From assembly GCA_944393215.1 (NCBI GenBank), contig CALXZL010000002.1, positions 71,239 to 135,238 of the forward strand: DNA of 64,000 bases, in the 5' to 3' direction. Below, in pieces: positions 48,136 through 49,532 of this stretch. Origin of the DNA: an uncultured Alphaproteobacteria bacterium. Lineage in GTDB: Bacteria > Pseudomonadota > Alphaproteobacteria > RF32 > CAG-239. Each line of letters starts with the position of its first letter. Position 1 is the stretch's first letter. Made by a program: the position numbers and the translations under genes. Under the pieces are notes generated by a model. The model ran no database searches, was not told the DNA's origin, and saw only the letters and a list, made by a program, of their open reading frames with translations.

Positions 48136-48164
48136 TTGACAAACGAGATAATAGATATTATTAA
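48136..48164 (+). promoter_or_regulatory. Putative sigma70 promoter of tRNA-Met
   Basis: TTGACA-17 nt-TATTAA. Confidence 0.6.
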
Positions 48165-48179
48165 AGACATGAATTTGAT

Positions 48180-48255
48180 GGCGGGTTAGCTCAGTCGGTA
48201 GAGCGGAGGAATCATAATCCTTGTGTCGTGGGTTCGAATCCCTCACCCGCTACCA
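48180..48255 (+). tRNA. tRNA-Met (CAT), elongator type
   Basis: GGCGGGT/ACCCGCT stem, GAGGA-ATCATAA-TCCTT anticodon arm, GTTCGAAT, encoded CCA; lacks the initiator C1:A72 and 3 G:C features; Ile2 not fully excluded. Confidence 0.9.
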
Positions 48256-48258
48256 ACT

Positions 48259-48286
48259 AAAAAAGACAGTGCAAACTGTCTTTTTT
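48259..48286 (+). terminator. tRNA-Met terminator (copy 1)
   Basis: AAAAAAGACAGT gcaa ACTGTCTTTTTT. Confidence 0.85.
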
Positions 48287-48302
48287 CATTTTAAAGTTCC
48301 GT

Positions 48303-48486
48303 AGGGATTTGAACCCACGAGGCGTGGGTTTGAACCGCCGAAGGAAGGCAGACGGAAGTATGCCGGTTTTGCTTTGCAAAGCAAAATCCTTCAAGGTCGG
48401 CGTTAAGAAAACTTTTTATAAAAAAGTTTTTAGCCCATCCCTCACCCGCTACCAACCTAAAAAAGACAGTGGAAACTGTCTTTTTT
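48303..48486. repeat. tRNA-Met-derived structured element ending in a duplicate of the tRNA 3' end and its terminator
   Basis: Inverted T-arm 48303-48320; direct half T-arm 48323-48334; 102-nt hairpin-rich insert; 48437-48486 repeats 48238-48286. Confidence 0.85.
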
Positions 48487-48533
48487 TATTTTATAACATT
48501 GACGAAAAAAAAATACATTATATTACCAATAAC

Positions 48534-48658
48534 AATGTCGCCGCCGTCGTGAAAACGGGACTTGGGAGCAGAGGCATAAGCCAAACTCTTATTCTGCCGA
48601 TAGTAAGGCGCATAAGTAGTATCCTTTGTGTGCACAGCAGACCGTGTCCTGCGACATT
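48534..48658 (+). ncRNA. Candidate structured ncRNA of unknown family
   Basis: Closing stem AATGTCGC/GCGACATT, several internal stems, GC-richer than flanks, TTGACG upstream. Confidence 0.5.
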
Positions 48659-48659
48659 A

Positions 48660-49532
48660 TTACAAACTTTCGGCACAAAGCAAAGCGCCTCCGATAATAC
48701 CGGCATCATTTTCAAATTCAGCCTCCCGTAATACAATCTGAGCCGCAACAATAGCCGCATTAACGTTTTTTTCCATAAGCGGATAATTAATAAAATGCGC
48801 CATAGATCCCCCTAATAACACAATATCAGGATCAAAAATACTGGCAAAGATTCGCACTCCTGTTTCCACCATATTTTGCCAACGTTCAAATACGGCAATA
48901 TCTTTATGATTATTTTCTTCCAAACCTTGAATAATATCATAACTTGTTTTGTTATCATCATTATATGCTTCTTTAGCATCCAGATTAAGGGCTGAACCGG
49001 ACATATAAACTTCCAAACAATCATAATTACCACATCCGCAGCGACGATGTTTATCTTGACGTACCGGAAAATGAGTTTCGCCGGCAGCTCCTGATTTTCC
49101 TTTTAAGAGTTTTCCGTCAACAACGATTCCCACACCGACACCGGTTCCCAAAGTAAGGAGGACCACATTATTCATATTTTTAGCATGACCGACCTTATAT
49201 TCCGCCCACACGGCAGAATTAGCATCATTTTCCACAAAAACTTTTTTCTTAGATAAAGCTTGAAAGTCAACATCACCGTAACCCTCAGGCAAATTTCCGA
49301 CCGAACCGGTAATCTTGGTATTTTGACTATCCACCGTACCGGCAGTAGATATGGCAACGGCATCAACTTCATCTTCATGCTGAGAAATAATCTTTTTCAA
49401 CAGCGCCACAATAGCTTCTGTTGTCGCCGGAGTTGAAAATTTCACTGTTTTTGAGGCGAGTTCACCGTTCTCAAACACCAAAGCGAAAGCAATTTTTGTA
49501 CCGCCGATATCAAAAGAAAGAATTTTTTTCAT
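48660..49532 (-). CDS. ROK-family sugar kinase
   Basis: DIGGTK, VENDANSA, LTLGTGVG, GETH, CGCG..DCLE. Confidence 0.92.
   Translation of the reverse strand: MKKILSFDIGGTKIAFALVFENGELASKTVKFSTPATTEAIVALLKKIISQHEDEVDAVAISTAGTVDSQNTKITGSVGNLPEGYGDVDFQALSKKKVFVENDANSAVWAEYKVGHAKNMNNVVLLTLGTGVGVGIVVDGKLLKGKSGAAGETHFPVRQDKHRRCGCGNYDCLEVYMSGSALNLDAKEAYNDDNKTSYDIIQGLEENNHKDIAVFERWQNMVETGVRIFASIFDPDIVLLGGSMAHFINYPLMEKNVNAAIVAAQIVLREAEFENDAGIIGGALLCAESL

Follow-up and report, generated by a model that had tools for sequence, protein, structure and literature searches.

A putative tRNA-linked repeat behind a tRNA-Met gene of an uncultured alphaproteobacterium and the family of related units

In a 64,000 nt stretch of DNA from an uncultured alphaproteobacterium of the CAG-239 lineage (assembly GCA_944393215.1, contig CALXZL010000002.1, positions 71,239 to 135,238; referred to as the window), the region from 48287 to 48493 behind a tRNA-Met gene forms a single unit, in which an antisense piece of the tRNA, a sense T-arm piece, a module, a copy of the tRNA tail and a terminator follow each other. 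This unit is probably a tRNA-linked repeat (TLR) like those first noticed downstream of tyrT in Escherichia coli, and it would encode a structured RNA of ~155 nt on the tRNA strand, between two terminators. The observations that carry this assignment are the anatomy of the unit, the linkage of its multiple copies to tRNA genes, the match of the T-arm pieces to the local tRNA, a conservation of RNA type on the + strand, and a layout that is identical to that of the E. coli RtT units. Judged by this analysis, the unit appears to be a new instance of a kind which is already known but unexplained, and it adds a new lineage and a new module to that kind.

Anatomy of the unit behind tRNA-Met

Along the + strand, the tRNA gene is followed by a terminator, a degenerate antisense copy of the tRNA 3′ half, a sense T-stem and T-loop up to nt 58, the module, an exact copy of tRNA nt 59-76, and again a terminator (Table 1). 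All details listed in a preliminary description of this region (coordinates, inverted repeat of the T-arm, duplication of tail and terminator, palindrome, and stems) were recovered in the sequence, by the repeat finder or by folding. That description had spoken of an insert in the T-loop, which proved to be accurate, as the module interrupts a partial T-arm copy precisely after tRNA position 58 and before position 59.

The T-arm of tRNA-Met(CAT) reads GTGGG-TTCGAAT-CCCTC and has a U50-U64 mismatch, while the same tRNA has a G1.U72 pair (Rfam alignment). The T-arm of tRNA-Arg(CCG) from the same genome is identical, including the U50-U64 mismatch (Rfam alignments). The antisense copy is unevenly preserved. 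Its acceptor part (48287-48302) has decayed, whereas its T-arm part is kept: AGGGATTTGAACCCACGA (48303-48320) is the reverse complement of the tRNA T-arm at 17 of 18 positions, and the repeat finder reports it as an inverted repeat of 18 nt with 48226-48243 (94% complementary). The antisense copy mirrors tRNA-Met about the loop of terminator T1, with a spacing of 21 versus 22 nt on either side of T1. Two or three loop bases separate the antisense T-arm from the sense piece CGTGGGTTTGAA (48323-48334), which represents the 5′ strand of the T-stem plus the T-loop up to position 58 and agrees with tRNA positions 48227-48238 in 11 of 12 cases.

The tail ATCCCTCACCCGCTACCA is identical in both copies (18/18 between 48437-48454 and 48238-48255). 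It is part of two overlapping pairs of direct repeats (48238-48264 with 48437-48463 and 48257-48293 with 48457-48493), which are spaced by 199-200 nt according to the repeat finder. Beyond the 18-nt tail, the two copies differ by one inserted base and one substitution in the terminator loop, and there is one further substitution past 48286. A terminator scan lists T2 as terminator-like but not T1, the T-tail of which is one T shorter. The promoter-like hexamers TTGACA and TATTAA upstream of tRNA-Met recur in relatives; a simple promoter scan omits this site (48136-48164) since the second hexamer ends in A. One short mechanical open reading frame (ORF) of 54 amino acids overlaps the unit, on the minus strand.

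Table 1. Features of the tRNA-Met locus (window positions) and loci of the second module, M2, on contigs of the same genome outside the window (contig and position).
Feature	Position	Strand	Basis
Promoter-like TTGACA-17 nt-TATTAA, 5′ of tRNA-Met	48136-48164	+	read from the sequence; putative
tRNA-Met(CAT), CCA encoded	48180-48255	+	ARAGORN; Rfam tRNA 64.3 bits, non-canonical pair marked
Direct-repeat copy 1: tRNA nt 59-76, terminator T1 and 7 nt	48238-48293	+	repeat finder
Terminator hairpin T1: A-tract, 12-bp stem, T-tract, symmetric	48259-48286	+	repeat finder, inverted pair
Degenerate antisense copy of the tRNA 3′ half	48287-48320	+	repeat finder, inverted pair
Hairpin H0: antisense T-stem/T-loop with sense T-stem 5′ strand and T-loop (nt 49-58)	48309-48333	+	fold; two G.U pairs
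Module M, 102 nt, hairpin-rich	48335-48436	+	repeat finder and fold
Closing stems of module M	48336-48345 / 48387-48402	+	fold
Hairpin P2: GGCA-G-AC-GGAA-GU-A-UGCC, most conserved element; GNRA tetraloop 48354-48357	48347-48364	+	fold, copy comparison
Hairpin P3, perfect palindrome	48367-48386	+	repeat finder
A/U tail hairpin	48408-48430	+	repeat finder; arms 48408-48417 / 48421-48430
Direct-repeat copy 2: tRNA nt 59-76 (48437-48454), T2 (48459-48486) and 7 nt	48437-48493	+	repeat finder; T2 scored terminator-like
M2 locus, tRNA-His	C4:49340-49415		
M2 locus, tRNA-Arg(CCG)	C1:46150-46226		
M2 locus, tRNA-Lys(CTT)	C21:13726-13801		

The arrangement was found independently in Logan contigs from three other studies (X4 record 18, covering 48226-48750; X2 records 6 and 9; X9 record 24), the sources being DNA from bird-gut or unlabelled metagenomes. 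In addition, this unit occurs in six other species of the genus (seven with the source), in each between tRNA-Met and the ROK-like gene that also follows it in the window. Its presence in contigs of other studies and in six further species shows that this is real DNA and not an assembly artefact, and the unit is thus confirmed together with its coordinates.

An empty site or a circle joint was not encountered in the Logan contigs of the three DNA studies, which, as contigs, drop rare variants. One X4 contig joins 48001 to 48477, but there are 13 other letters in between and the matching sides are only ~19 nt long, so that we took it as a chance match to the terminator. The tRNA-Met locus itself offers no empty-site comparison among more distant relatives, in which the ROK-like gene has no adjoining tRNA-Met. 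A 'solo' state was seen behind tRNA-Met in G003 (L016), where tRNA, terminator and spacer are followed by AGGGATTTGAACC, the start of the antisense T-arm, and then by unrelated DNA; here the unit is cut inside hairpin H0 and the neighbouring gene differs.

A family of units linked to tRNA genes

When the insert was compared with its own genome and with relatives, as the preliminary description had proposed, its front half was found again at 76-86% identity in other genera, in each case near a tRNA gene. The conserved front part, which comprises H0 and P2, is represented by covariance model R1, built from 22 aligned copies. The genome containing the window (G000; other G numbers denote genomes of relatives) has four R1 copies at three loci, behind tRNA-Met, tRNA-Ser(GGA) and, twice, tRNA-Leu(CAG). 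They occur 44-53 nt behind their tRNA, or one unit further, with the tRNA-Met unit beginning 44 nt after the tRNA on the + strand. All 13 genomes of the genus have R1 matches (4-13 each). At E values up to 1e-6, matches are found in 143 of the 151 sampled genomes of the family, distributed over 23 of 23 genera and with 1-20 copies per genome, while R1 matches a single one of the 149 genomes that represent other families in an even sampling of the class. The densest genome of the family has 21 hits in 1.5 Mb.

Linkage to tRNA genes is strong. Among 52 full-length R1 hits in the fetched loci, 47 have a tRNA upstream on the same strand. The distance is 20-58 nt for 37 of them and 197-686 nt for the other 10, which are second units or stand behind a different module. 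Of the five hits that lack a tRNA, three are at most 160 nt away from a contig end. In 24 of the 47 units, the tail copy of 18 nt is perfect, and in 32 it has no more than three mismatches. In G112, 19 of 21 R1 hits stand behind 19 different tRNA genes. Taking the fetched loci and G112 together, the same design occurs behind tRNA genes of at least 24 anticodon types in the family, and the tRNA-Met insert is not a one-off event. The copies within G112 are at most 78% identical, which indicates that the family is old in its places and does not result from a recent burst.

Two isolated observations concern the surroundings of units. Three R1 hits in G147 (C137:31193-35203) recur at intervals of exactly 1980 bp, which suggests that a unit forms part of a larger tandem repeat. 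In G255, a unit without a tRNA within 14 kb lies beside fragments which, judged by eye, resemble pieces of a serine recombinase.

A general layout emerges if the 3′ half of the tRNA is written as a L b c CCA, with a and b for the 5′ and 3′ strands of the T-stem, L for the T-loop up to A58 and c for the 3′ strand of the acceptor. The tRNA is then followed by a terminator, antisense c′ b′ L′ a′, 3-6 nt, a L, the module, b c CCA, and a terminator. In every unit, the module is located between positions 58 and 59. The antisense copy spans the whole 3′ half of the tRNA, and its mirror symmetry about the terminator loop also holds at other loci. Over 37 units, the identity of the antisense copy to the local tRNA is 86% in the T-arm part and 57% in the acceptor part, and the sense piece is the local tRNA's own T-stem in 30 of these units, involving 12 different T-stem sequences.

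The layout is not tied to one module. In G000, 8 of the 43 tRNA genes show TLR-like features, with at least two unrelated modules. The second module, M2, which has ~190 nt and no match in Rfam, occurs at three loci (Table 1) in the same layout as the R1 units (terminator, antisense T-arm, sense T-stem and T-loop, module, tail from nt 59), and M2 units are also found in tandem. A third type exists behind tRNA-Met in G004 (L022), where tandem units of ~215 bp, which end in the 14-nt tRNA tail CTCTCTCGCTACCA, replace the window-type unit. As several unrelated modules are found in one layout, the layout outlives its cargo. Common to the unrelated modules are the mirror T-arm, the 58/59 junction and the tail copy, and in this family also the flanking terminators. 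Features that are kept across unrelated modules probably hold the mechanism.

The units are subject to turnover. In G000, tRNA-Arg(CCG) is followed by one M2 unit and a partial M2 unit. In G001, an extra R1-type unit is found between the tRNA body and the M2 unit that is common with G000. This extra unit starts at nt 59, its terminator is a different one, and the tail copy behind it shows C-to-T decay; it is the displaced tail copy that has decayed in G001 versus G000 (ATCTTTCC against ATCCCCCC). At the end of the array in G001, a third terminator precedes the flank common with G000. The comparison of the two genomes indicates that units are blocks bounded by tail copies, the intact tail always being the one joined to the tRNA. 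To judge from these two sequences, the difference may be either the gain of a block in G001 or its loss in G000. While there is one unit in the window, two full units and a partial one are in tandem in G005. Where an array stops, the next unit is cut at an arbitrary point, which fits unequal crossing-over between repeats, and in G012 and G009 copy 1 and copy 2 show a mixture of terminator types, which fits exchange between units.

A larger insertion was seen near a unit as well. In G115 (L060, C2, 8.4-17.8 kb), an island of ~9.2 kb separates tRNA-Ser(GGA) from a decayed unit and is located beside the unit, not inside it. A 384-amino-acid ORF on this island has a DGQHR motif, read by eye, which recalls DndB-like proteins. 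Elsewhere in the window, a TTGACG-16 nt-TATATT element on the + strand (48497-48527), located just after T2, faces the minus-strand ROK-like gene (48660-49532) from its 3′ side and may be a chance occurrence. About 1.5 kb before the window start, ARAGORN finds a permuted (two-piece) transfer-messenger RNA (tmRNA) gene (G000:C2:69452-69781), which fits the alphaproteobacterial origin.

Conservation of RNA type on the tRNA strand

The + strand of the unit has a minimum-energy fold of -54.5 kcal/mol (z = -4.0), and none of 200 shuffled sequences is as stable; for the minus strand the values are -51.3 kcal/mol and z = -2.6. All three stems named in the preliminary description (CGCCGA/TCGGCG, GAAGGA/TCCTTC and GGCA/TGCC) form in the + strand fold. 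The consensus of hairpin P2 is GGCA-G-AC-GNRA-GU-A-UGCC, and the loop conforms to GNRA in 42 of 52 copies (GGAA 18, GGGA 12, GCAA 4, GAGA 3, GUAA 2, GAAA 2, GCGA 1). Several of the copies that were not counted keep a GNRA loop but have the AC/GU pairs swapped to GC/GC. In an alignment of 80 distinct sequences fitted to R1, all six pairs of P2 have changed on both sides and 97.2% of the cells are paired, the corresponding value for H0 being 93.4%. Both hairpins were recovered unaided by RNAalifold when 18 full-length units were aligned independently with MAFFT. P1, the stem enclosing P2 and P3, covaries, too. It reads GAAGGA/UCCUUC in the window and GAAAGA/UCUUUC in G005, G009, G010 and G012, while GGCAA/UUGCC and others are found elsewhere, with the pairing kept.

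The central pairs of H0 allow the strands to be distinguished. They are U.G in 18 and G.U in 17 of 22 copies, with C-G or G-C in the rest, and the U.G and G.U pairs would turn into A.C mismatches on the minus strand. Both GNRA loops and the use of G.U versus A.C pairs as a strand argument are established RNA knowledge. Taken together, a GNRA-capped P2 with compensatory changes, the G.U pairs, and the folding energies show that conservation of the module is of RNA type and indicate an RNA that is read on the same strand as the tRNA.

Other types of RNA were considered. A tRNA-like gene on the minus strand was rejected, as the T-stem is lost on that strand in several copies and the G.U pairs become A.C. 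The module has no match in Rfam, at E values up to 10 for the window, up to 1 for related loci, and with gathering thresholds for the others. For ribozymes, introns, tmRNA and Y-RNA-like RNAs, there was no Rfam hit beyond T-arm fragments.

Relation to known systems and origin of the units

TLRs were first described in 1978, according to PMC8144298, which cites Egan & Landy 1978 and Rudd 1999. There, they are defined by a position directly behind a tRNA or rRNA gene, in the orientation of its operon, and by a 3′-terminal identity of 18-19 bp to the 3′ end of this upstream gene, and 22 TLRs are listed at ten loci of strain K-12, of which 19 are in tRNA operons and without known function. The other three are linked to rrn operons and lie between terminators T1 and T2; read-through of T1, processing, and binding of Hfq and CsrA in vitro are reported for them. 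Transcription by terminator read-through with subsequent processing was shown for some E. coli TLRs (rtT and RrA/B/F; PMC8144298). A mobilome preprint (10.1101/2024.07.17.603846) reports raised coverage of tyrT-rttR, and there a raised coverage of RNA genes in general is ascribed to RNA/DNA hybrids and not to circles. Our literature searches on TLRs, RtT and rttR did not find an account of such units outside Enterobacteria.

As an Rfam control, we analysed the E. coli K-12 tyrT-tyrV locus, which has four RtT units with 133-138 bits (gathering score 45). In a script-based comparison, each of the four shows an antisense T-arm (14/17), twenty bases further a sense T-stem and T-loop (9/10), a module of ~68 nt, and an exact 18-nt tail of tRNA-Tyr. 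The junction is at 58/59, as in the R1 units. Like these TLRs (178 bp, RtT RNA, rttR, RF00391), the units described here are located behind a tRNA on the same strand, end with the last 18 nt of the tRNA, and occur as one to several tandem units per locus (one to five by definition) at several loci per genome. The window unit thus shares with the E. coli TLRs its same-strand position, an 18/18 tail, the number of units, and the inner layout seen at tyrT. Some module tails (...GCGAAGUA and ...GCAGAGUA), which are directly followed by AUCC at the junction, resemble ...GCUGAGUA in front of the same AUCC in E. coli. In the Rfam consensus of RtT as well as in the fold of the window unit, the antisense strand pairs with the tail copy in a closing helix, which would imitate a tRNA end. 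Differences exist as well. The units described here have a GNRA-capped P2 core without detectable sequence or profile similarity to RtT, they are flanked by intrinsic terminators, and their family, from uncultured gut Alphaproteobacteria, is far denser (up to 21 hits per 1.5-Mb genome). The window unit stays outside RF00391, for which at least 45 bits are required.

In the RrA, RrB and RrF small RNAs of E. coli (rrnA/B/D), the order is likewise a stable-RNA gene, a terminator, an RNA with an 18-nt copy of the 3′ end, and a second terminator, but these are linked to 5S rRNA and not to tRNA. They are made by read-through, processing takes place close to the repeated tail, and Hfq and CsrA are bound via GGA motifs (PMC8144298).

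Palindromic miniature elements that are REP/REPIN (RAYT) or derive from IS200/IS605 resemble the units in being small, hairpin-rich, multi-copy and non-coding, but they differ in that the units are strictly linked to the 3′ end of tRNA genes and copy the sequence of the local tRNA. Islands integrated in tRNA genes, for which Williams in 2002 reportedly distinguished sublocation classes, and the cis-mobilisable elements (CIMEs) of streptococcal integrative and conjugative elements resemble the units in that the tRNA 3′ end is directly repeated from the T-loop onwards, the tRNA is regenerated, and elements accrete in tandem, the newest one adjoining the tRNA. In contrast to them, the unit measures only ~200 bp and contains no gene, its junction lacks an intact core site, and its cargo shows RNA-type conservation.

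If the unit is a TLR, its RNA would be made from the tRNA promoter by read-through of T1, with the promoter-like site upstream of tRNA-Met as the presumed source of the transcript. It would have H0 first, then a junction bearing P2 and the variable P3, and then the exact 18-nt tRNA tail with CCA, so that its 3′ end could be set in the same sequence context as that of the tRNA. Transcription, processing and any cellular role are inferred. At the DNA level, the unit would be a block that begins at tRNA position 59 and carries its own terminator. Such blocks may stack beside the tRNA, and recombination between the tail repeats may duplicate or remove them, the tRNA being left intact.

Several points weigh against this assignment. 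T1 looks like a competent terminator, so that read-through is assumed, and a simple scan found no promoter-like site between T1 and the module, for which reason an own promoter at this position was rejected. The sole metatranscriptome contig set (X18) covers just 48174-48255, that is, only the tRNA, and with 1-7 differences over this range these contigs may represent the tRNA of another organism. RtT (RF00391) was not matched by the window (E up to 10) or by seven related loci (E up to 1), and R1 has no match at the E. coli tyrT/tyrV locus. As neither model finds the sequences of the other, the link to TLRs is a likeness of layout and not a demonstrated homology. The covariation of H0 is partly trivial, because both of its arms copy one tRNA, and the 80-sequence alignment had been fitted to R1. 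Finally, the helix between antisense strand and tail copy is barely above shuffled sequences (mean longest run of 5.2 versus 4.6 pairs in 36 units, by a crude test). A tRNA-like minihelix formed by the antisense acceptor and the tail copy was rejected, given the decay of the acceptor part (57% versus 86% for the T-arm) and a closing stem hardly above shuffles.

The search for a linked enzyme gave a negative picture. Y1_Tnp is found in 39 of 101 genomes of the family, as compared to R1 units in 143 of 151, and G004, G012 and G023 have 6-11 units each but no Y1_Tnp. RVT_1 (PF00078), which served as criterion for a reverse transcriptase, and the DEDD domain (PF01548) of the transposase of IS110-type elements with bridge RNA have no match in G000, a genome that is 100% complete by marker genes. 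These three were rejected as enzymes linked to the units. G000 has 10 tyrosine- and 8 serine-recombinase matches, some beside tRNA genes, and no tie to the units was found. No integrase or other recombination gene is present inside the unit, no related autonomous element was found, and no relative has cargo inside its unit.

It could nevertheless be argued that the unit is a miniature integrative element, with no more than an attP site or mobilised in cis, which enters the T-loop at 58/59 by the action of a recombinase in trans and brings a replacement tail and terminator, while its hairpins are sites for protein binding or DNA structure. Several aspects of turnover would agree with this: the exact start at nt 59 with an own terminator, the position of the newer unit beside the tRNA and the decay of the displaced tail in G001 as compared to G000, the tandem arrays, and the mixed terminator types in G012 and G009. 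The 9.2-kb island between tRNA and unit in G115 corresponds to the usual accretion pattern at a tRNA site, and G000 encodes the recombinases mentioned above. However, tyrosine recombinases use a core with a 6-8-bp overlap, which is here expected to be flanked by the T-stem arms, and the module splits the T-loop half from the tail copy, so that no intact core site is left at the junction. The contigs of three studies contain no empty-site or circle joint, the divergence of the G112 copies speaks against a recent spread, and the arbitrary array ends are as after unequal crossing-over. Conservation of the GNRA loop and of G.U pairs favours RNA over DNA sites, and two unrelated modules have one layout in one genome. 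We therefore consider a miniature integrative element unlikely. The preliminary description had offered it as a minimal mobile element; it is supported by block gain or loss between species and by tandem stacking and opposed by the lack of an empty site, a circle junction and a linked enzyme and by the age of the copies, and it is a minority view. The alternative reading of that description, a tRNA-like RNA that could still be 3′-processed, is the better of the two in the light of RNA-type conservation and of the layout shared with E. coli TLRs, and it comes close to the reading as a TLR that we favour. The earlier interpretation was thus supported in part.

The unit could also be a self-templating insertion cassette of a kind not described before, in which a folded RNA or single-stranded DNA rebuilds the T-arm duplex from its T-arm pieces, with the module bulging at 58/59, and so guides insertion to this position and regenerates the tail. 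The local match of the T-arm pieces (30/37 exact, 12 T-stem types), the use of the 58/59 junction by two unrelated modules and in E. coli, and the mirroring of the tRNA about the terminator loop would be expected from such a process, which we nevertheless regard as improbable: there is no linked enzyme (G000 lacks RVT_1 and IS110 DEDD, and Y1_Tnp is found in 39/101 genomes versus units in 143/151), the local match could arise by gene conversion with a tRNA gene 50-200 nt away, and G112 gives no sign of recent movement. It is similarly speculative, and in our opinion just as doubtful, that TLR-type units, those of E. coli and of gut Alphaproteobacteria alike, make up a single widespread class of RNA cassettes which would colonise tRNA genes at 58/59 without a dedicated recombinase, with insertion and tail rebuilding by a folded local T-arm copy, and with the structured RNA riding on tRNA transcription and 3′ maturation.

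By far the least credible explanation is a decaying scar, that is, attL and attR left behind after the body of a large integrase-bearing island was deleted. It would account for the direct repeat of the tRNA 3′ end and would suit the variability of regions downstream of tRNAs in the genus. It is hardly reconcilable with the same small unit and module being present at tRNA-Met in seven species, with related units behind at least 24 anticodon types, none with cargo inside, and with a module that is under structural constraint. The preliminary description had stated that a remnant of such an island in relatives would speak against it; no such case was found, as the 9.2-kb island of G115 lies beside the unit.

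In summary, the detailed layout of a TLR, with a mirror T-arm, a module after T-loop position 58 and an exact 18-nt tail, exists in a distant uncultured lineage. Most genomes of that lineage carry such units, at up to about twenty tRNA genes per genome, and the core shows clear covariation of RNA type. This provides a comparative handle on the TLR puzzle, which dates from 1978. It also calls for caution in genome annotation, as short repeats of a tRNA tail are not always scars of integrated islands.

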